From: Escherichia phage N15
Sequence record: NC_001901.1
DNA length: 46,375 bases
Reading direction: 5' to 3' (one strand)
Both the position numbers and the translations under genes were made by a program. The notes beneath the pieces were generated by a model. That model saw only the letters and a list, made by a program, of their open reading frames with translations, made no database searches and was not told where the DNA came from. Numbering within the stretch: position 1 is the stretch's first letter; every line of letters begins with the position of its first letter. This document shows positions 4,285 to 39,603 of the stretch, in pieces.

Positions 4285-5608
4285 TCTTCCGCATATTGCC
4301 AGTATGGCCTTTAATGAGCCACTGATGCTTGAACCCGCCTACGCGCGGGTTTTCTTTTGCGCGCTGGCTGGCCAGCTGGGTATCACCCGGCTGACAGATA
4401 CTGTCGCTGGCATCACGCTTGATGCAGGACAAATTGCCGAACCGCTGGCGTTATTTGGTGATGATGATGACATGGAACCCCGTCCATCACGCAGTTATCA
4501 AGTGGCAAATGGTGTCGCAGTTTTACCCGTTTCCGGCACGCTGGTCAGTAAAACCCGCTCGCTGCAGCCTTATTCCGGCATGACGGGTTACAACGGGATC
4601 ATCGCTCGCCTGCAGCAGGCAATCAGTGACCCCGGCGTAGATGGCATCCTGCTGGATATGGATACGCCAGGCGGAATGGTGTCCGGGGCATTTGACTGCG
4701 CCGACATTATTGCCCGTATGCGCGATATCAAACCCATCTGGGCGCTGGCCAATGACATGAACTGCAGCGCAGGGCAGCTTATTGCCAGTTCAGCATCGCG
4801 GCGGCTGGTCACACAAACGGCCAGAACCGGATCCATCGGGGTCATGATGGCGCACAGCAACTATGGTGCTGCGCTCAAAACTAACGGCGTTGAGGTCTCG
4901 CTGATTTACAGCGGCGATCACAAGGTCGACGGCAACCCTTACGAAAAACTACCAGAAGATGTGCGTGCTGATTTCCAGACGCGTATCGATGCCACTCGTC
5001 AGATGTTCGCCGAAAAGGTTTCCGCTTATACCGGTATGTCCGTTCAGGACGTACTGGACACCGAAGCGGCAGTATTCTCCGGCCAGGAGTCAGTGGACAA
5101 CGGTTTGGCGGATGAACTTGTTAACAATACCGATGCGCTCGGCGTGATGCGCGAAGCACTCGACAGACGCAAAAAAATAACCATTGGAGGAACTATGCCA
5201 TCACCTTCTGCATCAGCTGTGGCCACTAAGCCAGCTGACCAGGCAGCAACTCAGACAACTGCCTCAGCTGAACAGGTCACTACCGTTGACACGACCATTG
5301 CTTCCGTAGAGGCCCCTGTAGATGTCAGTGCGCAGGTCACTGCAGCAGTAGCTGCAGAGAATAGCCGCATCATGGGCATCCTGAACTGTGAAGAGGCGAA
5401 AGGGCGTGAGTCACAGGCGCGTGCACTGGCCGAAACGCCGGGTATGACGGTAGAGAGTGCACAGCGCATTCTGGCGGCTGCACCGCAAAGTGCCCAAGCG
5501 CGTACCGACACGGCGCTGGATCGTCTGATGGAAACAGCACCAGGCGCACTTTCAGCAGGCAGCGCATCTTCTGATGCCGCTGACGATTTGTTAAACACCC
5601 CAGTTTAA
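4265..5608 (+). CDS. Prohead protease / scaffold (lambda gpC-like, S49 ClpP-type)
   Basis: Position after portal. S49-type block GILLDMDTPGGMVSGAFD...NCSAGQLIASSAS. Ala/Gln-rich C-terminal scaffold part. Confidence 0.9.
   Translation: MAHELRNLPHIASMAFNEPLMLEPAYARVFFCALAGQLGITRLTDTVAGITLDAGQIAEPLALFGDDDDMEPRPSRSYQVANGVAVLPVSGTLVSKTRSLQPYSGMTGYNGIIARLQQAISDPGVDGILLDMDTPGGMVSGAFDCADIIARMRDIKPIWALANDMNCSAGQLIASSASRRLVTQTARTGSIGVMMAHSNYGAALKTNGVEVSLIYSGDHKVDGNPYEKLPEDVRADFQTRIDATRQMFAEKVSAYTGMSVQDVLDTEAAVFSGQESVDNGLADELVNNTDALGVMREALDRRKKITIGGTMPSPSASAVATKPADQAATQTTASAEQVTTVDTTIASVEAPVDVSAQVTAAVAAENSRIMGILNCEEAKGRESQARALAETPGMTVESAQRILAAAPQSAQARTDTALDRLMETAPGALSAGSASSDAADDLLNTPV
5195..5608 (+). 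CDS. Nested in-frame scaffolding protein (lambda Nu3-like)
   Basis: In-frame ATG at 5195 preceded by GGAGG (5187..5191). Same arrangement as lambda C/Nu3. Confidence 0.6.
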   Translation: MPSPSASAVATKPADQAATQTTASAEQVTTVDTTIASVEAPVDVSAQVTAAVAAENSRIMGILNCEEAKGRESQARALAETPGMTVESAQRILAAAPQSAQARTDTALDRLMETAPGALSAGSASSDAADDLLNTPV

Positions 5609-5617
5609 GAGGCTATC

Positions 5618-5950
5618 ATGGCAATTACTGAAGTTTTCACACATAAGCAGCCGCTCGGTAACAGCGACCCGGCACACACCGCGTATGGTCCTGGCGAACT
5701 GACGGCTTCCACTCCAGCCATGACACCGCTCATGCTGGATGCCACTTCTGGCAAGCTGACCGTCTGGGATGGTGCTCATGCTGGCGCGGCAACAGGCATC
5801 CTCGCTGTAACCGCAGACCAGAACAGCGCAGAACTGGCTTTTTATAAATCTGGCTCTTTCCGTATTGAAGATGTCCTCTGGCCATCTGCCGTCACCGACG
5901 AAAACATTAAACGTAACGCGTTCGCCGGTACTGCAATCAGCATCGTTTAA
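5618..5950 (+). CDS. Head decoration protein (lambda gpD-like)
   Basis: GNSDPAHTA...PAMTPLMLD...FAGTAISIV matches lambda D almost block for block. Confidence 0.95.
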
Positions 5951-5982
5951 TCCGCGTTTTTACAACCACCATCATTCATAAA

Positions 5983-6004
5983 AGCCGCCTGCGCGGCTTT
6001 TTTT
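5983..6004 (+). terminator. Intrinsic-terminator-like hairpin between the D-like and E-like genes
   Basis: AGCCGC-ctgc-GCGGCT followed by T7. Confidence 0.6.
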
Positions 6005-6017
6005 ATGGGAAAAATCT

Positions 6018-7043
6018 ATGTCCGTTTACACCACTGCCCAGCTGCTGGCGGTCAATGAGAAGAAATTCAAATTCGATCCGCTCTTCCTGCGCATCTTTTT
6101 CCGCGAAACTTATCCCTTCAGTACAGAGAAGGTTTACCTGTCGCAAATTCCTGGCCTGGTCAACATGGCGCTGTACGTCTCGCCGATTGTCTCCGGCAAA
6201 GTGATCCGCTCCCGTGGCGGCAGCACGTCTGAATTCACGCCAGGTTATGTGAAGCCGAAACACGAAGTTAACCCACTGATGACTCTTCGCCGCCTGCCGG
6301 ATGAGGATCCACAGAACCTCGCTGACCCGGTCTACCGCCGTCGCCGCATTATCCTCCAGAACATGAAGGATGAAGAGCTGGCGATTGCGCAGGTCGAAGA
6401 GAAGCAGGCTGTTGCGGCGGTACTCAGTGGGAAATACACCATGACCGGGGAAGCGTTCGAGCCTGTTGAAGTTGATATGGGGCGCAGCGCTGGTAACAAC
6501 ATTGTCCAGGCCGGTGCGGCTGCGTGGTCCTCCCGCGACAAAGAAACGTATGACCCGACCGATGACATTGAAGCCTACGCGCTCAACGCCAGCGGTGTGG
6601 TCAACATCATTGTGTTCGATCCGAAGGGCTGGGCGCTGTTCCGTTCCTTCAAGGCAGTGAAGGAGAAACTGGATACGCGTCGAGGCTCTAACTCTGAGCT
6701 GGAAACCGCCCTGAAAGACCTGGGCAAGGCAGTTTCCTACAAGGGGATGTATGGCGATGTGGCCATCGTGGTCTACTCCGGCCAGTACATCGAAAACGAC
6801 GTCAAAAAGAACTATCTGCCAGACCTGACGATGGTCCTGGGTAACACTCAGGCGCGCGGCCTGCGTACCTATGGTTGCATTCTTGATGCCGATGCCCAGC
6901 GAGAAGGTATCAACGCTTCGACGCGTTACCCGAAAAACTGGGTGCAAACGGGCGATCCGGCGCGTGAATTCACCATGATTCAGTCAGCCCCGCTGATGCT
7001 GCTGGCAGACCCGGACGAGTTCGTGTCCGTCAAGCTGGCATAA
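6018..7043 (+). CDS. Major capsid protein (lambda gpE-like)
   Basis: 341 aa, same size and position as lambda E. MSVYTTAQLLAVNEKKFKFDPLFLRIFFRETYPF is E-like. Confidence 0.95.
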   Translation: MSVYTTAQLLAVNEKKFKFDPLFLRIFFRETYPFSTEKVYLSQIPGLVNMALYVSPIVSGKVIRSRGGSTSEFTPGYVKPKHEVNPLMTLRRLPDEDPQNLADPVYRRRRIILQNMKDEELAIAQVEEKQAVAAVLSGKYTMTGEAFEPVEVDMGRSAGNNIVQAGAAAWSSRDKETYDPTDDIEAYALNASGVVNIIVFDPKGWALFRSFKAVKEKLDTRRGSNSELETALKDLGKAVSYKGMYGDVAIVVYSGQYIENDVKKNYLPDLTMVLGNTQARGLRTYGCILDADAQREGINASTRYPKNWVQTGDPAREFTMIQSAPLMLLADPDEFVSVKLA

Positions 7044-7088
7044 CTTCCACCTGTGGCCCATTCGGGCCACCTTTCTGGAGTATTACCC

Positions 7089-7523
7089 ATGACAGAGAAA
7101 GAAAAGCTGATTGCTCGGCTGAATGAACTTGGTACCCAGCTTAACCGCGAAGTCAGCACCAGCGGCACCATTCAGGAACTCACTATGCGTATTGCTGAGC
7201 TTGAAGAGGAGCTGGATGGAGACGCCACCTCGGTTGACGGCGAAAGCGGCGGGCAGAATGCTGCCGACAGCACCGACAGCACCGACAGCACCGACAGCAC
7301 CGACAGCACCGACAGCGATGTTGCTGATGTGGAAAAAGTAAAATCGGAAGCGGGTACAAATGGTGACCAGGTATCAGTAGAAACGCTGGCTACCCTGCAT
7401 GTTGAGGCACTACATGCCACGCGTAACGAACCGGTATCCATCGTTGAGCCCGGTGTGATTATCCGCGTATCCGAACAGGATGCAGACGAGCTGATCTCAA
7501 AGGGGCTGGCTCGCGAAGTCTGA
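7089..7523 (+). CDS. DNA-packaging accessory protein (lambda gpFI-like)
   Basis: MTEKEKLIARLNELGTQLNREVS...LHVEALHATRNEPV...GLAREV parallels lambda FI. ATG at 7089 with GGAG at 7076. Confidence 0.85.
   Translation: MTEKEKLIARLNELGTQLNREVSTSGTIQELTMRIAELEEELDGDATSVDGESGGQNAADSTDSTDSTDSTDSTDSDVADVEKVKSEAGTNGDQVSVETLATLHVEALHATRNEPVSIVEPGVIIRVSEQDADELISKGLAREV
7264..7316 (+). repeat. 9-bp tandem repeat (CCGACAGCA x ~5.9) inside the FI-like gene
   Basis: Direct reading of 7264..7316; encodes DSTDSTDSTDSTDSTDSD. Confidence 0.95.
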
Positions 7524-7533
7524 AGGGGGCCGC

Positions 7534-7887
7534 ATGGCTGATTTCGATAATCTCTTTGACGAGGCCATGTCGCGAGCAGATGGTGCTATCCGTGGTGTGA
7601 TGGGTACAGAGGCAAAGGTGATGTCAGGCACTTTGTCAGGTGCAACCCTGGTCGGTGTATTTGATGATCCAGAAAACATCGGTTATGCCGGCGCCGGGAT
7701 TCGCGTTGAAGGTACCAGCCCGACGCTGTTTGTTAAAACCTCCACAGTCAGCCAGCTGCAGCGTATGGACACACTGACGATTAACGGGCGGCAATTCTGG
7801 GTTGATCGTGTTGGTCCTGATGATTGTGGATCATGTCACATCTGGCTGGGTAACGGCACTCCGCCAGCTTCTTCGCGCCGCCGTTAA
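7534..7887 (+). CDS. Head-tail connector (lambda gpFII-like)
   Basis: MADFDNLFD...GVFDDPENIGYAG...WVDRVGPDDCGSCHIWLG matches lambda FII. Confidence 0.93.
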   Translation: MADFDNLFDEAMSRADGAIRGVMGTEAKVMSGTLSGATLVGVFDDPENIGYAGAGIRVEGTSPTLFVKTSTVSQLQRMDTLTINGRQFWVDRVGPDDCGSCHIWLGNGTPPASSRRR

Positions 7888-7896
7888 GGAGCGCCC

Positions 7897-8451
7897 ATGT
7901 CATTAAAAGGCCTTGAACAGGCGATAGAAAACCTTAACAGCATCAGCAAAACGGCTGTCCCGCGTGCGTCGGCGCAGGCTGTTAACCGCGTGGCAAACCG
8001 GGCCGTCAGCCGCAGCGTGGCGGTCGTATCAAAAGATACGCGCGTACCGCGAAAACTGGTAAAGCAACGCGCCAGGGTGAAGCGTGCGACGGTCAATAAA
8101 CCTCGCGCGCTTATCCGTGTAAACCGGGGCAATTTACCGGCCATTAAACTCGGAACCGCAAGCGTGCGACTTTCCCGCAGAAAACGGGATAAGAAAGGGG
8201 CCAACAGCGTTCTGCGTATAGGGCCGTTCCGTTTTCCGGGCGGTTTTATCCAGCAACTTAAAAATGGCCGCTGGCATGTCATGAGGCGTACGTCAAAACC
8301 TCGTTACCCCATTGAAGTGGTCAGCATCCCGCTGGCAGCTCCATTAACTACGGCGTTTAAAGAAGAACTGCCAAAGCTCATGGAGTCAGATATGCCCAAA
8401 GAACTCCGGGCATCCCTTACCAACCAACTCAGGTTAATTCTGACACGATGA
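7897..8451 (+). CDS. Tail completion protein (lambda gpZ-like)
   Basis: KGLEQAIENLNSISKTAVP...FIQQLKNGRWHVM matches lambda Z. Confidence 0.93.
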   Translation: MSLKGLEQAIENLNSISKTAVPRASAQAVNRVANRAVSRSVAVVSKDTRVPRKLVKQRARVKRATVNKPRALIRVNRGNLPAIKLGTASVRLSRRKRDKKGANSVLRIGPFRFPGGFIQQLKNGRWHVMRRTSKPRYPIEVVSIPLAAPLTTAFKEELPKLMESDMPKELRASLTNQLRLILTR

Positions 8452-8846
8452 AACACAGAGATATTCGCAAGGTGATTATTGACGCGCTGGAGAGCGCGAT
8501 TGGTACTGACGCCATTTATTTTGACGGCAGACCTGCAGTGCTCGAAGAGGGTGATTTTCCCGCTGTTGCCGTTTACCTGACCGATGCGGAATACACAGGG
8601 GAAGAACTGGACGCCGACACCTGGCAGGCCATTCTGCATATCGAAGTCTTTCTTGAGGCTCAGGTACCTGATTCTGAGCTGGATGACTGGATGGAGACGC
8701 GAGTGTATCCGGTTCTCGCAGAGGTTCCAGGGCTTGAATCCCTTATCACCACAATGGTTCAGCAGGGCTATGACTACCAGCGCGATGACGATATGGCGCT
8801 GTGGAGTTCTGCCGACCTGAAATATTCCATTACTTACGACATGTGA
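8448..8846 (+). CDS. Tail terminator (lambda gpU-like)
   Basis: [31 protein letters not shown]...LHIEVFL matches lambda U. Confidence 0.93.
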
Positions 8847-8853
8847 GGACCCT

Positions 8854-9591
8854 ATGGCCACACCAAACCCGCTGGCACCAACAAAAGGTGCTGGTACCAC
8901 CCTCTGGGTTTACACCGGAACCGGTGATCCATACGCCAATCCGCTTTCAGACGTTGACTGGCTGCGTCTGGCAAAGATTAAAGACCTGCAGCCCGGTGAA
9001 CTGACCGCCGAATCTGAGGATGACACCTACATCGATGATGAGAATGCCGACTGGACATCAACGATGCAGGGGCAGAAATCAGCCGGTGAAACCAACCTCA
9101 CTCTCGCGTGGATGCCGGGAGATTCCGGTCAGCAGGACCTGGTGAACTGGTTCGATGAAGGCACCGTGAAGGGGTATAAAATCAAATATCCGAATGGTGT
9201 TGTCGACGTCTTTAAGGGCTGGGTGAGCAGTCTAGGCAAGACCATCTCGTCTAAAGAGGTCATGACCCGCACGGCAAAAATCACCAACAATGGCAAACCA
9301 TCGCTGGCCGAAGACAGTGGTACAGCGCCGATTGCTGTTACGGGGATCAGCCTGGATAAATCCACGGCGGCTGTGGCGGTTGCAGCCACGACGCAACTGG
9401 TGGTTTCTGTCCTGCCAGCAAGTGCTTCAGATAAGTCTTTCCGCGTAGCCAGCTCTGATCCATCAAAAGCAACGGTCACCGTCAGCGGTAATACCCTGAC
9501 TGTCACCGGCGTAGCGGCAGGCACCGTCGAAATCATCGTCATGAGCAATGATGGTAACTTTGTGGCGATCTGCAAAGTCACTGTTTCCTGA
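8854..9591 (+). CDS. Major tail tube protein (lambda gpV-like) with C-terminal Ig-like (Big_2) domain
   Basis: Position and size. C-terminal [41 protein letters not shown] is a typical Big_2 domain. Confidence 0.92.
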
Positions 9592-9628
9592 TAACCGGGG
9601 CGCGAGCCCCGTTCCCCCCGGAGTAATT

Positions 9629-10051
9629 ATGTTTCTAAAGAGCGAACTGCTTGAATGCAACGGCAGCAGCGTCACATTGTTCCAGCTGTCAGCGCTACAG
9701 CGTATTGAACACCTCGAATACCTGAAACAGCTGGAAGCGGTTGAGGTGGGCGATTTTCAGGCGGCCATTACCTTTACTGTGAAGAGTGGAGCGTATCTCG
9801 TCGCAATGTCGCTCTGGCACGGACACCCTTTGAAAGGCTCACAGGGAGAAAACGCGGCGGCGGAAGTGGCAAAGATTCAGGATGAGGTCATGCAGACATG
9901 GCCGACCGAACTGGTTGCCGAAGCGGAATATAAGGTGAAACTCCTGTCCGGAATGATTGCGCCTGTCATTGATGAACCGACTTCATCCGGTGAAGAACGT
10001 AATGAACCTGCTGAACCCGTTACTGCGGAAAAGCCCTCGCCAGTGAGCTGA
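9629..10051 (+). CDS. Tail assembly chaperone (lambda gpG-like)
   Basis: MFLKSE...LSALQRIEHL...LVAMSLWH matches lambda G. ATG at 9629 after GGAG. Confidence 0.9.
   Translation: MFLKSELLECNGSSVTLFQLSALQRIEHLEYLKQLEAVEVGDFQAAITFTVKSGAYLVAMSLWHGHPLKGSQGENAAAEVAKIQDEVMQTWPTELVAEAEYKVKLLSGMIAPVIDEPTSSGEERNEPAEPVTAEKPSPVS
10027..10033 (+). promoter_or_regulatory. Candidate -1 ribosomal frameshift site GGAAAAG for the G-T fusion
   Basis: Zero frame GCG GAA AAG; the -1 frame (GGA AAA GCC...) stays open into ORF 10060..10380. Lambda uses GGGAAAG at the equivalent spot. Confidence 0.6.
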
Positions 10052-10059
10052 AATTTGCC

Positions 10060-10380
10060 ATGAAACTGGCGCGTGAGTTCGGTCGCCCGGACTGGCGTGC
10101 CATGCTTGCTGGCATGTCCTCAACGGAGTACGGCGACTGGAAAATCTTCTACCAGGACAATTATTTTCATGATGCGCAGCTGGATGCTCATTTCTCCGGT
10201 TTGCTCTACACCATCTCAACCCTGTTTTTTGCCGATCCGGAGTTAACCCCGGACAGTTTCAGCATTCTTTCCCCTGCACCGGAAGCCATCGACATCGATG
10301 ATCCGGATGACGATACGCTGATGGCGAAGGCTGCAGGTATTTCAGGAGGCGTGCGCTATGGCCCAGACGGCAGTCGGTGA
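10060..10380 (+). CDS. T-like segment of tail assembly chaperone, expected to be made only as a G-T frameshift fusion
   Basis: ORF lies in the -1 frame relative to the G-like gene, has no good RBS of its own, and occupies the same position as lambda T. Confidence 0.8.
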   Translation: MKLAREFGRPDWRAMLAGMSSTEYGDWKIFYQDNYFHDAQLDAHFSGLLYTISTLFFADPELTPDSFSILSPAPEAIDIDDPDDDTLMAKAAGISGGVRYGPDGSR

Positions 10381-20065: not shown

Positions 20066-21478
20066 ATGTCAGCAGGAACGATCACCCTGACAAACGGGTC
20101 CGCTATTGTTGGCGGTTCCGGAACCTCATTCGCAACTGAACTTGCTGCAGGTGACTTCATTGTCTCTACTGTGGGCGGCGTTCCGTATACGCTGCCCGTT
20201 AAATCGGTAGAGAGTAATGCCCAATTGACACTGGTCAGCAACTTTACAGGGCCGACACAGTCTGGGGCAGCTTGGTCAGCTGTTCCCCGCGTGGCGCTGA
20301 ACATGGTAACTGCCGCGCTGGTAGCGCAAAGTGCTGAAGCGCTGCGGGGACTGAATTACGACAAACAGAACTGGCAGCAGGTCTTCAGCGCGGCAGGCAA
20401 CATAACTGTGAAGCTACCAGACGGCACCACCTTCACCGGCCCGTCATGGCCGTCTGTAATCAGCCAGACAAGCACATTGAACGGGAAAACTGGCGGACTA
20501 GTTCAGGGTTCCTTATTGGTAACGCCAGGCGATTCTATTGGTGTCAAGAGTGGAACAGGCGGAGACAAAACCATTGTTCTGGTAAATAGCCCTTCCGATG
20601 GTCCGGTTGGCACGTATGTGAACTCTATTGCGGGAAATTATTACTCAGGTAATTGGCGAATGGGGGCTGTTCGCGGTGATGGGGTGGATGTATCCCGAGT
20701 TCAGTTGAATATTTACGATGGTGTTTCATCATCCGCATCGTTTATGTTTTATCCTAATGAGCTATTTAAGGCATCTTCTTGTGGTGCTCCTGGAGATTTT
20801 CGGGGGGATGCGTGGGGTGTTCTTAATGGTTGGGCAAAAAACATTTCATTCTATAGAGAGAATTTATCCTCGCCTAATAACGGTGGTTTTGTACCCTTTG
20901 GTAGATGGAATAGTTACTGTTCTGGTGGTTACTACTCCACAGCAGGACTCGGTTCTTTGGCAACCGGGCCCCAGTCCTTTGCTGATATAGTTATGACAAC
21001 ATTATGCGATGCTGGTAATGCTGGCCAGAGAACTTTTTACTTTCAGACAACTTCTGGCGACATTGTTACAACCGGAGCTGGCGCGGCTCCAGGTAACTAT
21101 ATTTTTTCCAAGCAAGCTAACTGTGATATCACGCTGAAGCATAATGTGAAATACGATGATGGTTACCAGTCATACGAAAATATTAAACAATTACAGCCCA
21201 CTACATACGTCTACAAAGATGATCCTCGTGAGAGAGTCCGTCGTGGCATCATTGCTCAGGATGTTATGAAGATCGACAGCGAGTATGTAAAGTTAGTCCC
21301 GGCAACACCGAAATTTGATAGCGAAGGTAACCGGATTGATGCTGACGATACGCTAGCACTGGATAACAACGTCATCATGCTTGATACCGCGCTGGCGCTG
21401 AACTATGTCATTAAACAGCTGGAAGCTACACAGAAAGAACTTGCTGACCTTAGAAATCATTTTGCTGGTTCTTTATAA
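20066..21478 (+). CDS. Side tail fibre with C-terminal intramolecular chaperone (peptidase S74-like) domain
   Basis: RBS AAGGAGGG. C-terminus CDITLKHNV...LQPTTYVYKDD...RGIIAQDVMKI fits the S74 auto-processing domain pattern. Confidence 0.85.
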   Translation: MSAGTITLTNGSAIVGGSGTSFATELAAGDFIVSTVGGVPYTLPVKSVESNAQLTLVSNFTGPTQSGAAWSAVPRVALNMVTAALVAQSAEALRGLNYDKQNWQQVFSAAGNITVKLPDGTTFTGPSWPSVISQTSTLNGKTGGLVQGSLLVTPGDSIGVKSGTGGDKTIVLVNSPSDGPVGTYVNSIAGNYYSGNWRMGAVRGDGVDVSRVQLNIYDGVSSSASFMFYPNELFKASSCGAPGDFRGDAWGVLNGWAKNISFYRENLSSPNNGGFVPFGRWNSYCSGGYYSTAGLGSLATGPQSFADIVMTTLCDAGNAGQRTFYFQTTSGDIVTTGAGAAPGNYIFSKQANCDITLKHNVKYDDGYQSYENIKQLQPTTYVYKDDPRERVRRGIIAQDVMKIDSEYVKLVPATPKFDSEGNRIDADDTLALDNNVIMLDTALALNYVIKQLEATQKELADLRNHFAGSL

Positions 21479-21483
21479 GCAAA

Positions 21484-21516
21484 CCGCCGCCCATCGCATG
21501 CAAGAATGGGTGGCGG
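21484..21516 (+). terminator. Strong hairpin after the tail fibre gene (terminator-like, weak U tract)
   Basis: CCGCCGCCCAT-n11-ATGGGTGGCGG, 11-bp stem. Confidence 0.5.
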
Positions 21517-21657
21517 CTTAAATCTGCTCACAAAGAGCTACTGCCAAAAAATTTACAGAAGCCATAATTCGAATCGTGAGAATAACTTAGAAACGAAACT
21601 GCGAGCCTTTCAACAGCTACGCGCTGGCTGATACTTGCATATACTTTGAAATAAAAC

Positions 21658-21677
21658 TACTGTATAAAAAAACAGTT
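21658..21677 (+). promoter_or_regulatory. LexA (SOS) box overlapping the promoter of the UmuD'-like gene
   Basis: TACTGTATAAAAAAACAGTT has exact CTG-N10-CAG spacing with an AT-rich core. TTGCAT lies 17 bp upstream of TACTGT. Confidence 0.8.
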
Positions 21678-21691
21678 ATATGGTGAGAGTT

Positions 21692-22078
21692 ATGGGATTC
21701 CCGAGCCCGGCACAGGACTACGTTGAAGAACGAATATCACTGGACAAGCTCCTCTTGACTAGGCCATCGGCTACCTACTTCATGCGCGCCGGTGCCACTC
21801 ACTATCAAGAAGGTATCCTGTACGGTGCATTGCTGGTTGTTGATGCGTCACGTACACCATGTGACGGCTCGTTACTTGTTTGCCGGATGGATGGCGAACT
21901 TAGGATAAAGCGGTACCGTAAGTCACCAACCCCTCATCTTGAGGATTTGCAAACAGGAAGAAGAGAAGAGATACCGAAATATGATGATGAAACGAGTCCG
22001 GATGCAATATTTGGCGTGATCACGTACAGCATTAACGACATGAGGTCAGGTGAATTTGATGATTGTCCAGTGTTGTAA
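21692..22078 (+). CDS. UmuD'-like protein (starts at the position of the UmuD cleavage product)
   Basis: MGFPSPAQDYVEERISLDKLLLTRPSATYF aligns to E. coli UmuD from Gly25 ([29 protein letters not shown]). Confidence 0.85.
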   Translation: MGFPSPAQDYVEERISLDKLLLTRPSATYFMRAGATHYQEGILYGALLVVDASRTPCDGSLLVCRMDGELRIKRYRKSPTPHLEDLQTGRREEIPKYDDETSPDAIFGVITYSINDMRSGEFDDCPVL

Positions 22079-22083
22079 AAAGC

Positions 22084-22114
22084 GAAAAGCCCCACGTATG
22101 TGGGGCTTTTTTTA
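22084..22114. terminator. Bidirectional terminator between the convergent UmuD'-like gene and sopB
   Basis: AGCCCCAC-gtat-GTGGGGCT flanked by an A-run on the left and T7 on the right. Confidence 0.85.
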
Positions 22115-22120
22115 TTGACC

Positions 22121-23149
22121 CTATTTTTTCTCTTTATTTTTTATAATATTTTCCAACTTATCGAGGTCGCGATTAACCTGCTCAGCTGCACCTAATTCTG
22201 CCTCCAATAACGCTTCTATTTTTTTTATTAAATTAGAGGGTATTTTACGGCTATCTACTTTCAAAGTGACAAAACTACCCTTGTATTTAGCTACAACACC
22301 TTCACCATATTTCTTCTCGGTCTTGGGCATTTCTTCCTTATCGACAAGAATAAAGTCCTGTAGTGCCTGAATAATTCTTGCGGGCTCGAAATCCTCTCCA
22401 GCTTGCTTCATACGAAGCAACTGCTTCGCACCATCGAGCATAGTCTGCTCGTTACCCTTATACACTTTAGATAAAGCATCGCCAGCGCGAGCTGATAGCT
22501 CTCCCGGATGCTTGAAGATAGACAGGATCTCCCTCGGTAATCCGGCGGTATTCATGCAGCGGTTCACGATATTACGGTCGATGCCCTCTGCTTCAGCCAG
22601 GGCTTTAACGTTACCATCAAATTCTTTCAGTCGGCGCAAGTACCGTTTCCCGCGTTCGTATGCACTGGTTGGCCGATAGTCGTTACCCAACTGTGACAAC
22701 TGCTGCATTTGTTCATCATCCAGCTCTCCAACGAGAACCCGATAATCGCTACCAGTGATGATGGCTGTTTTGCGGCGGCGTGAGCCATCGGCAATTTCGA
22801 TAATGCCTGACGTCCTTCTGGCGAACGCGGGGTTCTGCTGTCCTGAAGTGAGGAATGAAGGGATAAGGTCGGCCAGCGCTGATTCGTTCAGCAATTCCTG
22901 ATCACGTTCATTACCGAGCCAAACCATTGTGGCCTTTTCGACTTTATCAGCAGGAATGGTTTCCAGCTTAAAAGTCACGTTGCGGCCGCAAACCGGTAGC
23001 GTAATGCTATTCCCGGACAACGAACTTAATTTGCTCTGTAAGTCGCCAACCATCGGCGAAACCGATGGCGCTTTTTGCGGCGCATTATGGTTATTGCTCA
23101 TGAACGTTTCGATGTTGGGCGCATTTTTTAATATAGAGCGATTCTTCAT
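22121..23149 (-). CDS. sopB: Partition protein SopB (ParB family centromere-binding protein)
   Basis: Strong similarity to F SopB, e.g. GVIEIADGSRRRK, SDYRVLVGELDDEQM, LGNDYRPTSAYERG. ATG at 23149 after GGAGGAC. Confidence 0.95.
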   Translation of the reverse strand: MKNRSILKNAPNIETFMSNNHNAPQKAPSVSPMVGDLQSKLSSLSGNSITLPVCGRNVTFKLETIPADKVEKATMVWLGNERDQELLNESALADLIPSFLTSGQQNPAFARRTSGIIEIADGSRRRKTAIITGSDYRVLVGELDDEQMQQLSQLGNDYRPTSAYERGKRYLRRLKEFDGNVKALAEAEGIDRNIVNRCMNTAGLPREILSIFKHPGELSARAGDALSKVYKGNEQTMLDGAKQLLRMKQAGEDFEPARIIQALQDFILVDKEEMPKTEKKYGEGVVAKYKGSFVTLKVDSRKIPSNLIKKIEALLEAELGAAEQVNRDLDKLENIIKNKEKK

Positions 23150-23151
23150 AG

Positions 23152-24315
23152 TTAGTCCTCCCAACGAGGTTTGATTAGATCTTCGAAAATTTCTTTGCAG
23201 ACTGGCTCCCAGATTTCCACTGCATTTCGCCAGGCATTAAGCGTTGAGCGTTGATTTGCTGCTTGCTCAAATACGGTGCGCATCTTGATCTGGCCTTTAC
23301 CAACTTCATCAGTGACCCGCACGACCTGTCGCAAGACCATAGCTCCCCAGGTATTTCGAATCTGCTCCTCCATCCACCGGGACTGATTGCCGTTAGTAAG
23401 GCTGTATTTGGTCAGGAGCAGGCGGACGACAGGTTCAAAGCCGCCCAAATCGACGGTTTCAAGCAGGTCGAGCAGCATGGTGAAAAACTGAAGAACTGAT
23501 GCATAGTCGAACAGCTCTGCAGGGGTTGCTACCACGATGACGTCAGCAGCACAGACAACGTTAATAGTTCCCGTACCCAAGTTTGGCGCGCTGTCTATGA
23601 CGATAATGTCGTAGTTATCCCATACAGACTCGATAGCAGCACGAAGCATCAGATGAGGGGGATGAGGTAGCTTCCCCTCGGAATGGTACTGCATCAGATC
23701 TGTTTCAATGCGGTGAAGGGCCAGGCAGCTGGGGATTATGTCGAGACCCGGCCAGCATGTTGGTTTTATCGCATATTCAGCGTTGTCGCGTTTACCCAGG
23801 TAAAATGGAAGCAGTGTATCGTCTGCGTGAATGTGCAAATCAGGAACGTAACCGTGGTACATAGATGCAGTCCCTTGCGGGTCGTTCCCTTCAACGAGTA
23901 GGACGCGGTGCCCTTGCAAGGCTAACCATTGCGCCTGGTGTACTGCAGATGAGGTTTTATAAACCCCTCCCTTGTGTGACATAACGGAAAGTACAACCGG
24001 GTTTTTATCGTCAGGTCTTTGGTTTGGGTTACCAAACACACTCCGCATATGGCTAATTTGGTCAATTGTGTAGCCAGCGCGACGTTCTACTCGGCCCCTC
24101 ATCTCAAAATCAGGAGCCGGTAGACGACCAGCTTTTTCCGCGTCTCTGATAGCCTGCGGTGTTACGCCGATCAGGTCTGCAACTTCTGTTATACCCCAGC
24201 GGCGAGTAATACGACGCGCTTCCGGGCTGTCATCGCCGAACTGTGCGATGGCAATAGCGCGCGTCATTTCCTGACCGCGATTGATACAGTCTTTCAGCAA
24301 ATTAATTAACGACAT
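23152..24315 (-). CDS. sopA: Partition ATPase SopA (ParA family, Walker type)
   Basis: Near-colinear with F SopA, e.g. KGGVYKTS, LLVEGNDPQGTASMYHG, IKPTCWPGLDIIPSCLALHRIE. ATG at 24315 after GAGGAAACAGG. Confidence 0.95.
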   Translation of the reverse strand: MSLINLLKDCINRGQEMTRAIAIAQFGDDSPEARRITRRWGITEVADLIGVTPQAIRDAEKAGRLPAPDFEMRGRVERRAGYTIDQISHMRSVFGNPNQRPDDKNPVVLSVMSHKGGVYKTSSAVHQAQWLALQGHRVLLVEGNDPQGTASMYHGYVPDLHIHADDTLLPFYLGKRDNAEYAIKPTCWPGLDIIPSCLALHRIETDLMQYHSEGKLPHPPHLMLRAAIESVWDNYDIIVIDSAPNLGTGTINVVCAADVIVVATPAELFDYASVLQFFTMLLDLLETVDLGGFEPVVRLLLTKYSLTNGNQSRWMEEQIRNTWGAMVLRQVVRVTDEVGKGQIKMRTVFEQAANQRSTLNAWRNAVEIWEPVCKEIFEDLIKPRWED

Positions 24316-24376
24316 CCTGTTTCCTCTCAAACATGCCCTTATCTTTGTGTTTTTCATCATACTTTACGTTTTTAAA

Positions 24377-24942: not shown

Positions 24943-24959
24943 TGTTCTTTGATTGTGTT
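24943..24959. repeat. Right copy of the 17-bp inverted repeat, 36 bp upstream of the telN ATG
   Basis: TGTTCTTTGATTGTGTT is the reverse complement of 24636..24652. Confidence 0.9.
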
Positions 24960-24994
24960 ACGATATCCAGAGACTTAGAAACGGGGGAACCGGG

Positions 24995-26890
24995 ATGAGC
25001 AAGGTAAAAATCGGTGAGTTGATCAACACGCTTGTGAATGAGGTAGAGGCAATTGATGCCTCAGACCGCCCACAAGGCGACAAAACGAAGAGAATTAAAG
25101 CCGCAGCCGCACGGTATAAGAACGCGTTATTTAATGATAAAAGAAAGTTCCGTGGGAAAGGATTGCAGAAAAGAATAACCGCGAATACTTTTAACGCCTA
25201 TATGAGCAGGGCAAGAAAGCGGTTTGATGATAAATTACATCATAGCTTTGATAAAAATATTAATAAATTATCGGAAAAGTATCCTCTTTACAGCGAAGAA
25301 TTATCTTCATGGCTTTCTATGCCTACGGCTAATATTCGCCAGCACATGTCATCGTTACAATCTAAATTGAAAGAAATAATGCCGCTTGCCGAAGAGTTAT
25401 CAAATGTAAGAATAGGCTCTAAAGGCAGTGATGCAAAAATAGCAAGACTAATAAAAAAATATCCAGATTGGAGTTTTGCTCTTAGTGATTTAAACAGTGA
25501 TGATTGGAAGGAGCGCCGTGACTATCTTTATAAGTTATTCCAACAAGGCTCTGCGTTGTTAGAAGAACTACACCAGCTCAAGGTCAACCATGAGGTTCTG
25601 TACCATCTGCAGCTAAGCCCTGCGGAGCGTACATCTATACAGCAACGATGGGCCGATGTTCTGCGCGAGAAGAAGCGTAATGTTGTGGTTATTGACTACC
25701 CAACATACATGCAGTCTATCTATGATATTTTGAATAATCCTGCGACTTTATTTAGTTTAAACACTCGTTCTGGAATGGCACCTTTGGCCTTTGCTCTGGC
25801 TGCGGTATCAGGGCGAAGAATGATTGAGATAATGTTTCAGGGTGAATTTGCCGTTTCAGGAAAGTATACGGTTAATTTCTCAGGGCAAGCTAAAAAACGC
25901 TCTGAAGATAAAAGCGTAACCAGAACGATTTATACTTTATGCGAAGCAAAATTATTCGTTGAATTATTAACAGAATTGCGTTCTTGCTCTGCTGCATCTG
26001 ATTTCGATGAGGTTGTTAAAGGATATGGAAAGGATGATACAAGGTCTGAGAACGGCAGGATAAATGCTATTTTAGCAAAAGCATTTAACCCTTGGGTTAA
26101 ATCATTTTTCGGCGATGACCGTCGTGTTTATAAAGATAGCCGCGCTATTTACGCTCGCATCGCTTATGAGATGTTCTTCCGCGTCGATCCACGGTGGAAA
26201 AACGTCGACGAGGATGTGTTCTTCATGGAGATTCTCGGACACGACGATGAGAACACCCAGCTGCACTATAAGCAGTTCAAGCTGGCCAACTTCTCCAGAA
26301 CCTGGCGACCTGAAGTTGGGGATGAAAACACCAGGCTGGTGGCTCTGCAGAAACTGGACGATGAAATGCCAGGCTTTGCCAGAGGTGACGCTGGCGTCCG
26401 TCTCCATGAAACCGTTAAGCAGCTGGTGGAGCAGGACCCATCAGCAAAAATAACCAACAGCACTCTCCGGGCCTTTAAATTTAGCCCGACGATGATTAGC
26501 CGGTACCTGGAGTTTGCCGCTGATGCATTGGGGCAGTTCGTTGGCGAGAACGGGCAGTGGCAGCTGAAGATAGAGACACCTGCAATCGTCCTGCCTGATG
26601 AAGAATCCGTTGAGACCATCGACGAACCGGATGATGAGTCCCAAGACGACGAGCTGGATGAAGATGAAATTGAGCTCGACGAGGGTGGCGGCGATGAACC
26701 AACCGAAGAGGAAGGGCCAGAAGAACATCAGCCAACTGCTCTAAAACCCGTCTTCAAGCCTGCAAAAAATAACGGGGACGGAACGTACAAGATAGAGTTT
26801 GAATACGATGGAAAGCATTATGCCTGGTCCGGCCCCGCCGATAGCCCTATGGCCGCAATGCGATCCGCATGGGAAACGTACTACAGCTAA
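24995..26890 (+). CDS. telN: Protelomerase (telomere resolvase) TelN
   Basis: 631 aa starting MSKVKIGELINTLVNEVEAID. Tyrosine-recombinase-like core (…SGRRMIEIM…, …HDDENTQLHYKQF…) and an acidic tail. Adjacent to telRL. Confidence 0.97.
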   Translation: MSKVKIGELINTLVNEVEAIDASDRPQGDKTKRIKAAAARYKNALFNDKRKFRGKGLQKRITANTFNAYMSRARKRFDDKLHHSFDKNINKLSEKYPLYSEELSSWLSMPTANIRQHMSSLQSKLKEIMPLAEELSNVRIGSKGSDAKIARLIKKYPDWSFALSDLNSDDWKERRDYLYKLFQQGSALLEELHQLKVNHEVLYHLQLSPAERTSIQQRWADVLREKKRNVVVIDYPTYMQSIYDILNNPATLFSLNTRSGMAPLAFALAAVSGRRMIEIMFQGEFAVSGKYTVNFSGQAKKRSEDKSVTRTIYTLCEAKLFVELLTELRSCSAASDFDEVVKGYGKDDTRSENGRINAILAKAFNPWVKSFFGDDRRVYKDSRAIYARIAYEMFFRVDPRWKNVDEDVFFMEILGHDDENTQLHYKQFKLANFSRTWRPEVGDENTRLVALQKLDDEMPGFARGDAGVRLHETVKQLVEQDPSAKITNSTLRAFKFSPTMISRYLEFAADALGQFVGENGQWQLKIETPAIVLPDEESVETIDEPDDESQDDELDEDEIELDEGGGDEPTEEEGPEEHQPTALKPVFKPAKNNGDGTYKIEFEYDGKHYAWSGPADSPMAAMRSAWETYYS

Positions 26891-29885: not shown

Positions 29886-32800
29886 TTATATCGCCACGGC
29901 TTGCCGCTGGCTTAGAAACGCTTTCAGCAGCCTTATTTCGCGTACTGATAGCAGGTCCATAAATTCGGTCATGTACAGCGAGGCGAACGTTCTCGCGATG
30001 CTGGCCACTGGCCACAGGCGTACCGCCTCCATTTCGGTTGCTGGCAACGCGTTCTCCGCCCACGCCTCCGGTACCGCCACCGGGATAGCCTCCAGTGCCT
30101 GGATAATTACTGATTGTGGGGCGTCCGGAACGTGCTCTGTTTTGGATCGAGGGTTACCATGTATATCTATATTTAGATCCAAATCGCGATCCACTTCGAT
30201 GGTGGTTTTTTCCACCTTACGTGCGTGAATTGATAAACCGGCCTCGCGGCGCTTCTCCACGATATTCATGAGGAACTCGACCGAGTCCGGGTCAATGGAA
30301 CGCATCGTGGGGCGTGCATCGCCGTCTCTGGCGCGTCTGGTCTTACTGGATAGCCCCATAGACTCCAGGATGCCTATGCAGAGGTCTGCAGGCGCTTTCT
30401 TCTTGCCTTTCTCTGTGTTGAAGCCGCCGATGCGTAAAACGTTGTTTAGCAGATCGCGCCGTTCCGGCGTGAGCAGGTTATCTCTGGCGCGTTTGAGGGC
30501 GTCCATGTCTGCTTCACCTTCCAGGGTTTTTGGATCGATACCGCAGTCGCGGAAGTACTGCTGCAGCGTCGCCGATTTGAGGGTGTAGAAACCACGCATG
30601 CCTATCTCAACAGCAGGGGTCGATTTCACTCGGTAATCGGTTATGGCCGGGAATTTAGCCTGGAACTCTGCGTCGGCCTGTTCCCGCGTCATGGCCGTAG
30701 TGACGAACTGCTGCCATCTTCCGGCAACGCGATAAGCGTAGGTAAAGTGAATCAACGCTTCTTCACGGTCAAGGCGACGGGCGGTTATCTCATCCAGCTG
30801 CATGGTTTCAAACAGGCGCACTTTTTTCAGGCCGCCGTCGAAATAGAATTTTAACGCCACCTCGTCGACATCCAGCTGCAGCTCCTTTTCGATGTCCCAG
30901 CGGACCAGCTGGGCCTGCTCATCCAGGGACAGGGTGCGTTTTTTTATCAACTCATCGTGTTCGGCCTGGTCAGGAGTATCGACACTCAGGTGGCGCTCCA
31001 TAAGCTGCTCAAAGACCAGTTCACGGGCTTCTTTACGTAAATCCTTACCGATGCTGTTTGCAAGCGCGTCGGTGGCCATAGGCGCGACCTGATAGCCATC
31101 ATCATGCATGATGCAAATCATGTTGCTGGCATAATCATTTCTGGCCGATGCCTCGAGCGCGGCGGCTTTAATTTTGAGCTGCATGAATGAAGAGTTAGCC
31201 ACGCCGAGTGAAATTCGGTCACCGTCAAAGACAACGTCTGTCAGCAGCCCGGAGTGGCCAGCCGTTTCGAGCAAGGCCTGCGCGTAGGCGCGTTTGATTT
31301 TTTCCGGATCGGTTTCACGTTTACCGCGAAGCTTGTCGAAACCGATAATGTATTCCTGAGCTGTACGGTCGCGGCGCAGCATCTGGATGGCGTCGCTGGG
31401 GACCACTTCGCCGCAGAACATGCCGAAATGGCGGTGGAAGTGTTTCTCCTCAATCGATACACCTGAAGATATCGACGGGCTGTAGATGAGGCCGTCATAT
31501 TTTTTCACCATCACTTTAGGCTGGTTGGTGAAATCGTCGACTTCCTTCTCCTGTTTGTTTTTCTGGTTAACGCAGAGAAACTTTTTGTCAGGGAACTGTA
31601 GTCTCAGCTGCATGGTAACGTCTTCGGCGAACGTCGAACTGTCGGTGGCCAGCATGATTCGTTCGCCGCGTTGCACTGCAGCGATAACCTCGGTCATGAT
31701 CCGATTTTTCTCGGTATAAAATACGCGGATAGGCTTGTTGGTTTCGCGGTTGCGAACGTCGACCGGGAGTTCAATCACGTGAATTTGCAGCCAGGCAGGT
31801 AGGCCCAGCTCCTCGCGTCGCTTCATCGCCAGTTCAGCCAGGTCAACAAGCAGATCGTTGGCATCGGCATCCACCATAATGGCATGCTCTTCAGTACGCG
31901 CCAGCGCGTCGATAAGCGTGTTGAATACGCCTACCGGGTTTTCCATCGCACGCCCGGCCAGAATGGCACGCAGGCCCTGTGTTGCTTCATCGAAGCCGAA
32001 GAAGTCATGCTGGCGCATCAGCGGTTGCCAGCAGCCTTTAAGTATGGAGTTGATGCAAATAGTCAGCTTGTTGGCATATGGCGCCATTTCCTGATAGCCG
32101 GGATCCTGATAATGCAGAATGTCGGCTTTCGCGCCTTTCCCTTCGGTCATCATTTCATGCAGGCCGCCTATCAGGGATACGCGGTGCGCGACGGAAACGC
32201 CACGCGTGGACTGCAGCATCAGTGGACGCAGGAGGCCTGTCGATTTACCCGACCCCATCCCGGCGCGGACAATAACGATGCCCTGCAGCTGTGCGGCGTA
32301 TGTCATCACCTCATCGGTCATCCTGGAGGTTTCAAACCGTTTGTAAGTGATGTGTGACGGGCGAAGGTTCGGGTTGGTGATGCGTTCACTGAACGAACGT
32401 GATGTTTGCGCGGCACGGCATTTGCGATTCAACCGGCGCGTAATGTGATCTTTAACGGTACCGTTATAAATTTCTGCGATACCCATATCCCGCAGCGTGC
32501 TGCTGAAAAGGCGCATAAGTTCTTTCGGGCTGTTTGGTACCGGGCATGTCAGCATGCCAATATCAACGGCGCGAAGCAGTTCTTTGGCAAAAGTGCGTCT
32601 GTTCAGACGCGGGAGAGTACGCAGCTTATTCAGCGTGATCGACAACAGGTCGGTTGCACGGCTCAGATGATTTCTCGTTAACTGGCGAGCGACTTCCTTC
32701 AGCCCTCTCAGGCTGTGCAGGTCGTTAAAATCGCTGCATTCCAGCTCAGGGTCATCCTCAAAAGTTGGGTAAACACATTTGACGCCGGAAAACTTCTCCA

Positions 32801-33860
32801 TGATGTCGAATCCGGTGCGGAGGCCTGTGTTGCCTTTTCCTTCAGCTGAGGATTTGCGGTCGTTATCGAGAGCGCAAGTGATTTGCGCAGCCGGGTACAT
32901 GTTCACCAGCTGCTCGACAACGTGAATCATGTTGTTAGCGGAAACCGCAATGACTACCGCGTCAAAGCGTTTTTTCGGGTCGTTTCTGGTCGCCAGCCAG
33001 ATGGATGCCCCGGTGGCGAAACCCTCTGCAGTCGCAATTTTTTGCGCCCCCTGCAGGTCGCCAATAACAAAGCATGCACCGACGAAATCACCGTTAGTGA
33101 TGGCGCTGGTCTGGAACTTGCCACCATTCAGATCGATACGTTGCCAGCCAACAATCCGCCCGTCTTTTCTTCCGTCCAGGTGGGACAGAGGTATCGCCAT
33201 GTAAGTTGTTGGTCCACGGCTCCATTTCGCACTGTCGTGACTGGTCACGCGACGTATATCACAAGCGCCAAATACGTCACGAATTCCCTTTTTTACCGCA
33301 TAAGGCCAGGAGCCATCTTCAGCTGGCGAATGTTCCCAGGCGCGATGGAAAGCCAACCATCCAAGCAGGCGTTCCTGCTCCATCTGATTGTTTTTTAAAT
33401 CATTAACGCGTTGTTGTTCAGCTCGGAGGCGGCGTGCTTCAGCCTGGCGCTCCATGCGTGCACGTTCTTCTTCCGGCTGAGCGACCACGGTCGCACCATT
33501 CCGTTGCTGTTCACGGCGATACTCCGAAAACAGGAATGAAAAGCCACTCCAGGAGCCAGCGTCATGCGCTTTTTCAACGAAGTTAACGAAAGGATAACTG
33601 ATGCCATCCTTGCTCTGCTCAAGGCGTGAATAGATTTCCACACGGCCTTTAAGGCTCTTCTGCAGAGCTTCCGGGGAGGAATTATTGTAGGTGGTATAGC
33701 GCTCTACACCACCGCGCGGATTGAGCTGAATCTTATCAGCACACGCAGGCCAGTTGATACCGGCCATCTTCGCCAGCTCAGTCAGCTCATCACGTGCCGC
33801 GTCAAGCAGTGAAAACGGATCGCTGCCAAAGCGCTCCGCGTAGAATTCTTGTAAGGTCAT
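29886..33860 (-). CDS. repA: Replication protein RepA (primase / Toprim plus helicase multidomain replicase)
   Basis: 1324 aa. Toprim-like TAEGFATGASI...CALDNDRKSSAEGKGNTG. Walker A VRAGMGSGKST. Plasmid-type replicase known as the only N15 gene needed for plasmid replication. Confidence 0.95.
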   Translation of the reverse strand: MTLQEFYAERFGSDPFSLLDAARDELTELAKMAGINWPACADKIQLNPRGGVERYTTYNNSSPEALQKSLKGRVEIYSRLEQSKDGISYPFVNFVEKAHDAGSWSGFSFLFSEYRREQQRNGATVVAQPEEERARMERQAEARRLRAEQQRVNDLKNNQMEQERLLGWLAFHRAWEHSPAEDGSWPYAVKKGIRDVFGACDIRRVTSHDSAKWSRGPTTYMAIPLSHLDGRKDGRIVGWQRIDLNGGKFQTSAITNGDFVGACFVIGDLQGAQKIATAEGFATGASIWLATRNDPKKRFDAVVIAVSANNMIHVVEQLVNMYPAAQITCALDNDRKSSAEGKGNTGLRTGFDIMEKFSGVKCVYPTFEDDPELECSDFNDLHSLRGLKEVARQLTRNHLSRATDLLSITLNKLRTLPRLNRRTFAKELLRAVDIGMLTCPVPNSPKELMRLFSSTLRDMGIAEIYNGTVKDHITRRLNRKCRAAQTSRSFSERITNPNLRPSHITYKRFETSRMTDEVMTYAAQLQGIVIVRAGMGSGKSTGLLRPLMLQSTRGVSVAHRVSLIGGLHEMMTEGKGAKADILHYQDPGYQEMAPYANKLTICINSILKGCWQPLMRQHDFFGFDEATQGLRAILAGRAMENPVGVFNTLIDALARTEEHAIMVDADANDLLVDLAELAMKRREELGLPAWLQIHVIELPVDVRNRETNKPIRVFYTEKNRIMTEVIAAVQRGERIMLATDSSTFAEDVTMQLRLQFPDKKFLCVNQKNKQEKEVDDFTNQPKVMVKKYDGLIYSPSISSGVSIEEKHFHRHFGMFCGEVVPSDAIQMLRRDRTAQEYIIGFDKLRGKRETDPEKIKRAYAQALLETAGHSGLLTDVVFDGDRISLGVANSSFMQLKIKAAALEASARNDYASNMICIMHDDGYQVAPMATDALANSIGKDLRKEARELVFEQLMERHLSVDTPDQAEHDELIKKRTLSLDEQAQLVRWDIEKELQLDVDEVALKFYFDGGLKKVRLFETMQLDEITARRLDREEALIHFTYAYRVAGRWQQFVTTAMTREQADAEFQAKFPAITDYRVKSTPAVEIGMRGFYTLKSATLQQYFRDCGIDPKTLEGEADMDALKRARDNLLTPERRDLLNNVLRIGGFNTEKGKKKAPADLCIGILESMGLSSKTRRARDGDARPTMRSIDPDSVEFLMNIVEKRREAGLSIHARKVEKTTIEVDRDLDLNIDIHGNPRSKTEHVPDAPQSVIIQALEAIPVAVPEAWAENALPATEMEAVRLWPVASIARTFASLYMTEFMDLLSVREIRLLKAFLSQRQAVAI
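30141..30215. other. ori: Candidate replication origin core inside the 3' part of repA
   Basis: TTGGATC / GATCCAA inverted repeat (30141..30147, 30175..30181) flanks the AT-rich catgtatatctatattta. Several GATC sites. GGTGG-tttttt-CCACC hairpin. The N15 ori is reported to lie within the repA 3' region. Confidence 0.3.
33479..33496. promoter_or_regulatory. Centromere-like palindrome (SopB site) inside repA
   Basis: GAGCGACC-AC-GGTCGCAC, one arm mismatch relative to the other three sites. Architecture resembles F sopC TGGGACC-AC-GGTCCCA. Confidence 0.7.
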
Positions 33861-34108: not shown

Positions 34109-34717
34109 TCATCTACCCTCAACCATGAACGATTTGATCGTACCGACTACTTGGTGCACAAATTGAAGATCACTTTTATCATGGATAACCCGTTGAGAGT
34201 TAGCACTATCAAGGTAGTAATGCTGCTCGTCATAACGGGCTAATCGTTGAATTGTGATCTCGCCGTTATTATCACAAACCAGTACATCCTCACCCGGTAC
34301 AAGCGTAAGTGAAGAATCGACCAGGATAACGTCTCCCGGCTGGTAGTTTCGCTGAATCTGGTTCCCGACCGTCAGTGCGTAAACGGTGTTCCGTTGACTC
34401 ACGAACGGCAGGAATCGCTCTGTGTTGGCAGGTTCTCCAGGCTGCCAGTCTCTATCCGGTCCGGTCTCTGTCGTACCAATAACAGGAACGCGGTCTGGAT
34501 CAGATTCAGTGCCATACAGTATCCATTGCACGGGCTTACGCAGGCATTTTGCCAGCGATAGCCCGATCTCCAGCGACGGCATCACGTCGCCACGTTCTAA
34601 GTTTTGGACGCCCGGAAGAGAGATTCCTACAGCTTCTGCCACTTGCTTCAGCGTCAGTTTCAGCTCTAAACGGCGTGCTTTCAGTCGTTCGCCTCGTGTT
34701 TTCATACCCTTAATCAT
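34109..34717 (-). CDS. cB: Prophage repressor CB (HTH_XRE N-domain plus degenerate S24/LexA-like C-domain)
   Basis: KARRLELKLTLKQVAEAVGISLPGVQNLERG HTH. C-domain YALTVGNQIQRNYQPGDVILVD is CI/LexA-like. Divergent from cro. Confidence 0.9.
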   Translation of the reverse strand: MIKGMKTRGERLKARRLELKLTLKQVAEAVGISLPGVQNLERGDVMPSLEIGLSLAKCLRKPVQWILYGTESDPDRVPVIGTTETGPDRDWQPGEPANTERFLPFVSQRNTVYALTVGNQIQRNYQPGDVILVDSSLTLVPGEDVLVCDNNGEITIQRLARYDEQHYYLDSANSQRVIHDKSDLQFVHQVVGTIKSFMVEGR

Positions 34718-39514: not shown

Positions 39515-39563
39515 TTTAATCAAAAAAATTGCCAAAAAATGGTTGTATCGTTTGCGGATTTCC

Positions 39564-39579
39564 CTGTGTTTATATACAG
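39564..39579 (+). promoter_or_regulatory. LexA (SOS) box overlapping the promoter of the small antirepressor gene
   Basis: CTGTGTTTATATACAG is an exact CTGT-N8-ACAG. TTGCGG-17-TACAGT promoter-like hexamers overlap it. Confidence 0.8.
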
Positions 39580-39603
39580 TATTAAATAACCTTGGTAGAC
39601 AAA

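Follow-up and report, generated by a model that had tools for sequence, protein, structure and literature searches.

Phage-borne UmuD' proteins that are LexA-controlled and made pre-truncated (HumD) have been known since 1999, and were first characterised in phage P1. The title of the original report (McLenigan et al. 1999, J Bacteriol 181:7005) presents P1 HumD as a UmuD'-like functional homologue facilitating E. coli SOS mutagenesis, and the protein is reported to act positively in SOS mutagenesis, where it stands in for UmuD' alongside host UmuC (PMC7092418; McLenigan et al. 1999). HumD proteins have a curated family model and are routinely annotated in P1-like and N15-like prophages, where the slot of the gene is also known. 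Through them, temperate phages can supply the host with an activator of error-prone DNA synthesis in ready-made form, and HumD bears in this way on stress-induced mutagenesis and on the evolution of antibiotic resistance. Two small additions to this picture are made here, namely the widespread loss of the Ser-Lys dyad in pre-truncated relatives, the close clade of which keeps a Thr-His-Tyr loop, and a C-terminal tail resembling the tip of SSB.

The DNA analysed, hereafter the window, is the whole stretch of 46,375 nucleotides. Its humD locus comprises the following features:

21635..21663, plus strand: candidate sigma-70 promoter TTGCAT-17 nt-TACTGT, read from the sequence, the -10-like hexamer being the left half of the LexA box
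21658..21677, plus strand: LexA (SOS) box TACTGTATAAAAAAACAGTT, matching the consensus and the umuDC operator and ending 14 nt 5' of the ATG
21682..21689, plus strand: Shine-Dalgarno-like element GGTGAGAG, read from the sequence and serving ATG 21692
21692..22078 (stop codon included), plus strand: humD, coding for a 128-aa HumD-family protein (pre-truncated UmuD' analogue), from family and profile matches
22046..22075, plus strand: C-terminal tail of ten residues, SGEFDDCPVL, which lies beyond the end of UmuD in the alignment
22085..22110, no strand assigned: hairpin rich in G+C (11-bp stem, 6 G-C pairs) where humD and sopB converge, called on the minus strand

Outside the locus, the window carries these features:

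20066-21478: tail-fibre protein with an S74 chaperone domain
22121-23164, minus strand: SopB
23152-24360, minus strand: SopA/ParA
24953-26890: TelK/TelN-type protelomerase
29886-33860, minus strand: large RepA-like primase-helicase
34109-34717, minus strand: repressor candidate with HTH_3 and Peptidase_S24 domains, the second S24 domain of the window (tblastn with UmuD, E=5.9e-4)
39562-39581: second LexA box, CCCTGTGTTTATATACAGTA, with 16 of 20 positions as in the consensus, ca. 22 nt before a 75-aa ORF (39604-39831)
39896-40644, minus strand: Gp49/DUF891 gene (153 aa) next to an HTH_3 gene (95 aa)

The head and tail genes (354-18909) are ca. 90% identical to those of the lambdoid phages HK225 and mEp237, and the best phage match, an unannotated record (Enterobacter phage MStein-2023a), covers the first 25 kb. 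Given these lambdoid structural genes and this phage record, together with the sopBA, protelomerase and RepA neighbours, the window has the appearance of an N15/phiKO2-like linear plasmid prophage that is complete or nearly so. The Gp49/DUF891 and HTH_3 genes lie side by side in the manner typical of a HigB/HigA-like toxin-antitoxin pair.

Alignment against family profiles, the check that an earlier note on this DNA had proposed, placed the humD product firmly among the HumD proteins. The NCBIfam equivalog NF051876 ('HumD family translesion DNA polymerase') was matched over model positions 1-129 of 129 with 204 bits (E=6.4e-61; cut-off 120), while the model of the cleavable UmuD/MucA/RumA proteins (NF007621, Pol V autoproteolytic subunit) failed with 81.2 bits vs. 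a cut-off of 110. Matches were also obtained with Pfam Peptidase_S24 (PF00717; 36.6 bits vs. a cut-off of 23.3) and with PHROG 811 'UmuD-like protein' (E=4e-48). A repressor-like protein was ruled out, as the LexA model stayed below its cut-off (30.8 vs. 110.95 bits) and the domain profiles returned the S24 domain alone, with no N-terminal DNA-binding domain of the kind found in LexA and in phage CI-type repressors. The best Foldseek matches of the AF2 model in the PDB were 8gmt, 1umu and 1ay9 (UmuD/UmuD'); with a mean pLDDT of 65, this model is moderately confident and was used for the fold only, residue-level claims being drawn from elsewhere.

As a whole, 548 homologues were found at E<=1e-5 in a large protein database, mostly of 128-129 aa, many of them from Enterobacter and many named HumD. 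The nearest homologue is 99% identical and the nearest named one 89%; full-length identity is 70% to P1/P7 HumD and 65% to phiKO2 gp23, and a length of 128-129 aa is shared by 102 of 120 relatives. Megablast of positions 21500-22120 against phage and plasmid collections gave no match, the DNA being too diverged, and relatives were found at the protein level only. Judged on these matches, the product is an ordinary HumD-family member and the gene an orthologue carried by an N15/phiKO2-like linear plasmid prophage. The function would be that of P1 HumD, carried over by homology and from the papers cited above. The idea put forward in the earlier note, that the prophage supplies a LexA-controlled, orphan, pre-matured UmuD' analogue, is supported by the equivalog match and by the identity to P1/P7 HumD; it coincides with the published view of P1 HumD and is not new. 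Titration of host UmuD/UmuC, which the note offered as an alternative, is a suggestion.

Regarding the start of the gene, the ORF listed at this place extends from 21680 to 22078 on the plus strand (132 aa, MVRVMGFPSP...), and reading from ATG 21692 gives the 128-aa protein, which begins M-GFPSP. The latter start is preferred since it is preceded by GGTGAGAG, since the earlier ATG (21680) falls within this ribosome-binding element, and since the NCBIfam HumD model and the relatives start there: the model begins at the second Met, residues 5-132 of the longer reading corresponding to model positions 1-129, and an M/V-GFPSP start, with a GGAGGTG-type ribosome-binding site likewise placed, is common to P7 HumD, phiKO2 gp23 and five other relatives. 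Counterparts of the Shine-Dalgarno-like element occupy the same place in the relative loci L013 (GGAGGTGAGTT-ATG) and L011 (GGAGGTGGTT-ATG), and M-G-F stands at the start column in 119 of 121 close relatives. Upstream, the in-frame translation reads ...TTV*KNSYMVRVMGFPSP, with a TAA at 21665-21667, nine codons 5' of ATG 21692. Any N-terminal extension is therefore limited to at most four residues, and the 24-residue cleavable arm of UmuD cannot be encoded. A hidden upstream start with such an arm, which the earlier note had named as the finding that would speak against its reading, is thereby ruled out.

The UmuD sequence used for comparison is identical to that of E. coli K-12. In HMMER alignments with PDB chains, residue 2 of the product falls opposite residue 25 of full-length UmuD (8gmt_B), which agrees with the earlier description of a Met followed by the Gly25 equivalent, and opposite the first residue of the UmuD' crystal structure (1umu_A), with E values of ca. 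1e-18 (6e-19 for 1umu). The humD product thus starts exactly where RecA*-stimulated cleavage leaves UmuD'.

Both HMMER and MAFFT place a gap in the former active site, the loop of the product being one residue shorter (...YFMRA-GATHY vs. ...YFVKASGDSMI in UmuD), so that Ser60 of UmuD corresponds to Thr36 and Lys97 to Lys73. The ungapped alternative, with His37 opposite Ser60, was dropped: HMMER, MAFFT and P7 HumD all favour the gap, the Asp-Ser of P7 HumD matching Asp59-Ser60 only if it is allowed. Of the first description of this site, in which SGDSM was replaced by GATHY with a His in place of Ser60 and the Lys97 position was kept, the missing Ser and the retained Lys therefore hold, and the residue aligned with Ser60 is corrected to Thr. 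The Ser-Lys dyad of the cleavable UmuD/MucA/RumA proteins is absent, Thr36 standing at the Ser60 position beside the retained Lys73, and this change of nucleophile is in line with a protein that has no need for self-cleavage.

In the close HumD clade (n=121), the Ser60 position is held by Thr in 103 proteins, Ser in 15 and Ala in three; Lys is kept at the Lys73 position in 117, and the G-A-T-H-Y loop is strongly conserved. Such conservation of loop and Lys is not expected if the former active site had simply lost its function, and suggests a structural or binding role. It could also mean that a working Thr/Ser-Lys site is retained and that HumD cleaves S24 substrates in trans (for instance LexA, host UmuD or the CB repressor of the prophage), as Thr or Ser occupies the nucleophile position in 118 of these 121 proteins along with the 117 that keep Lys73. 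We regard this as highly improbable: in Ser-Lys peptidases Thr is generally a poor stand-in for the nucleophile Ser, the rest of the Gly-Asp-Ser-Met motif has been lost (GATHY), and both positions vary freely across the wider pre-truncated group.

For a wider comparison, 102 cluster representatives at 50% identity were obtained by exhaustive HMMER search. The dyad is retained in 43 of the 58 representatives with an N-terminal arm vs. 5 of the 44 that start at the cleavage site, counts which are approximate because some representatives are metagenomic fragments. In the pre-truncated group, Ser is replaced by Thr, Ala or Asp, and Lys often by Arg or Cys. The dyad is thus largely gone from pre-truncated relatives, in keeping with a relaxed need for catalysis, and its loss generally follows from being made pre-cleaved rather than being a peculiarity of this gene.

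As for the control of humD, the strong SOS box that had been recognised at first reading is confirmed: of its 20 positions, TACTGTATAAAAAAACAGTT shares 16 with the LexA consensus and 18 with the operator of E. coli K-12 umuDC. The pattern CTGT-N8-ACAG occurs three times in the window vs. 0.49 expected, and none of 100 shuffles gave three occurrences. The third of these (CTGTCGGGGAACACAG, 10821-10840), situated within a tail gene, agrees with the LexA consensus at 11 of 20 positions only, and its spacer is rich in G+C; it is probably due to chance. LexA boxes precede humD in the relatives as well. One is annotated in P7 ('LexA, regulation of humD expression') and another in phiKO2 (lexA binding site), and 14-17 nt separate the end of the box from the ATG in L011 and L013/L014. 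Across different prophage types, the box is kept 14-19 nt before the humD ATG in upstream DNA that is otherwise unrelated. In L004, the box (CACTGTATATAAATACAGTG) precedes a two-gene operon, ahead of a 79-aa gene.

The overlap of this box with the promoter, which the earlier note had also claimed, fared less simply. TTGCAT-17 nt-TACTGT is present, and no promoter was called at the LexA box by the consensus scan, which missed the candidate because TACTGT equals TATAAT at only three of six positions. The same TTGnnn-17/18-(T/C)ACTGT geometry is found 5' of humD in L011, L013 and L004 and of E. coli umuDC, which makes an operator-promoter overlap a reasonable inference. At the other end of the gene, the hairpin (22085-22110) runs on the plus strand into the T-run TTTTTTTATT (22107-22116), phiKO2 has an annotated terminator in the equivalent place, and the element is probably a bidirectional terminator. 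With a candidate promoter, a LexA operator and a terminator of its own, humD is, on these sequence features, a self-contained transcription unit.

One relative may have escaped LexA control. On an Enterobacter hormaechei chromosome (L012, 2900-3001), an ISL3-family insertion ends within the LexA box of the humD relative and leaves the right half-site alone (...CATATACATACAGTA); the box of L011 is intact.

A tblastn search of the window with K-12 UmuC found no umuC (best E 0.32 over 21 aa), as the earlier note had stated, and no umuC was seen beside the humD relatives at any of the loci inspected. The relatives are single genes in varied settings: next to sopBA in N15-like prophages, next to phd-doc in P1-like phages, and elsewhere beside gtrA and a glycosyltransferase gene or beside integrase and Arc-domain genes. 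The order humD, SopB, SopA, protelomerase is the same in L004 as in the window, with resolvase and 79-aa genes before humD in L004 instead of a tail gene.

In the closest named relatives (L004, 699-973; L009, 2762-3001; 86-89% identical), humD is the second of a gene pair, the first gene of which codes for 79 aa (PHROG 3893), overlaps the humD start and is absent from the window. A dinI gene lies near humD in L009 and in phiKO2. Also, in Enterobacter sp. MGH 2 (L010, 3001-5326; 4.7-Mb scaffold), the humD-sopB segment forms a perfect-looking inverted duplication, laid out as humD and a truncated sopB followed by their mirror image, which may have arisen as an artefact of assembly involving the linear plasmid prophage.

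With neither an N-terminal arm nor the catalytic Ser nor a umuC partner, the gene might be taken for a functionless pseudogene, left over from a decaying umuDC operon. The fixed length of 128-129 aa (102/120), the 548 homologues at E<=1e-5, the conservation of start, operator, Shine-Dalgarno element and tail across several phage types and the presence of a terminator of its own leave this reading with a negligible likelihood, and it was rejected.

We consider it likely, with good confidence, that humD is an SOS unit by which an N15/phiKO2-like prophage provides pre-cleaved UmuD' for the host UmuC. In the undamaged lysogen, host LexA would sit on the box overlapping the -10 region and keep humD off; upon DNA damage, LexA would be cleaved and humD transcribed. 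As the product starts at the Gly25 equivalent and is already UmuD'-shaped, it needs no RecA*-assisted self-cleavage. By analogy with P1 HumD, it would dimerise and pair with host UmuC into a Pol V-like translesion polymerase, and the post-translational delay between SOS induction and mutagenic bypass would be removed.

To the C-terminal tail, which is conserved, this UmuD' model gives no role. The tail is present in 111 of 120 close relatives (consensus S-G-E-F-D-D-C-P-V-M/L), its E, F, D, D and P being nearly invariant, and residues 119-128 have a pLDDT below 50 in the AF2 model, so that it is probably flexible. Counted to the carboxyl end, the C-terminus of E. coli SSB, DFDDDIPF, is as long as EFDDCPV(M/L), and both open with an acidic-aromatic-acidic-acidic pattern; distant HumD-like proteins end in EFDDIAPF, EFHDNLPF or EFDDTPF. 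Cleavable UmuD proteins are essentially without the tail (1/50 vs. 8/34; Fisher p=0.003), a comparison that is indicative only, as it comes from a crude regular expression and many of the 'no tail' representatives are metagenomic fragments. The resemblance to SSB concerns a short motif in which the Pro is shifted by one position. That the HumD tail mimics the C-terminal tip of SSB, in a pre-truncated lineage to which the tail is essentially confined and in which the Ser-Lys dyad has decayed, is put forward tentatively and seems unlikely on these sequence comparisons. If true, the phage UmuD' would dock onto UmuC or RecA, or onto proteins by which the SSB tip is recognised, and the phage version of Pol V would gain a recruitment route that host UmuD' is without.

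The second LexA box of the window bears on a related proposal. The 75-aa ORF behind it (39604-39831) matches PHROG 10889 'anti-repressor' (E=1.2e-8) and also PHROG 6301, with a hairpin rich in G+C downstream (ca. 39837-39866). It looks like an SOS-controlled antirepressor, which we take to be the induction switch described for N15, and in that case humD and prophage induction would share one signal. HumD might chiefly modulate the SOS or replication machinery by binding to RecA filaments, by forming heterodimers with host UmuD or by binding the proteins that recognise the SSB tip, RecA* activity, checkpoint timing or replication restart being tuned to the benefit of the prophage around induction. 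Besides the LexA control of induction, the gene for DinI, a modulator of the RecA filament, near humD in phiKO2 and L009 would fit such a role, as would the likeness of the conserved tail, and of the ends of the distant relatives, to the SSB tip and its near absence from cleavable UmuD (again indicative). Yet the likeness is that of a short motif with its Pro off by one position, and the positive role in mutagenesis reported for P1 HumD is already covered by the UmuD' model; a chiefly modulatory function is thus quite unlikely. The two are compatible and can both be true.

The provision of a pre-cleaved UmuD' to host UmuC remains the preferred explanation. The known systems compare with the humD of the window as follows. 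E. coli UmuD/UmuD' (the Pol V accessory subunit; PDB 1UMU, 1AY9, 8GMT) shares with HumD the fold, an identity of ca. 38-40% from Gly25 onwards and the LexA operator (18/20). Unlike HumD, UmuD has a 24-residue arm, a Cys24-Gly25 cleavage site, the Ser60-Lys97 dyad and a co-transcribed umuC, and is without the C-terminal tail.

P1/P7 HumD is much closer, with 128-129 aa, the M-GFPSP start at the Gly25 equivalent of UmuD, the S24 fold, the Lys97 equivalent, the tail GEFDDCPV(M/I/L), a LexA box 14-19 nt 5' of the ATG and no umuC alongside. It differs in its slot, beside phd-doc, whereas the humD of the window lies between the tail-fibre gene and sopBA, and, as for P7 HumD, in the Ser at the Ser60 position (ADSHH), where the window protein has Thr (GATHY).

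In the N15-like linear plasmid prophage phiKO2 of Klebsiella oxytoca, gp23 ('UmuD-like protein') has Thr at the Ser60 position, as does the window protein. Its gene differs in having a GTG start and in sharing a LexA-controlled intergenic region with a divergent dinI, which is missing from the 180-bp gap of the window. The gene order of phiKO2 (tail gene, LexA site, UmuD-like gene, terminator, ParB, ParA, telRL and protelomerase) is paralleled by that of the window: tail fibre, LexA box, humD, hairpin, SopB, SopA and TelK-type protelomerase.
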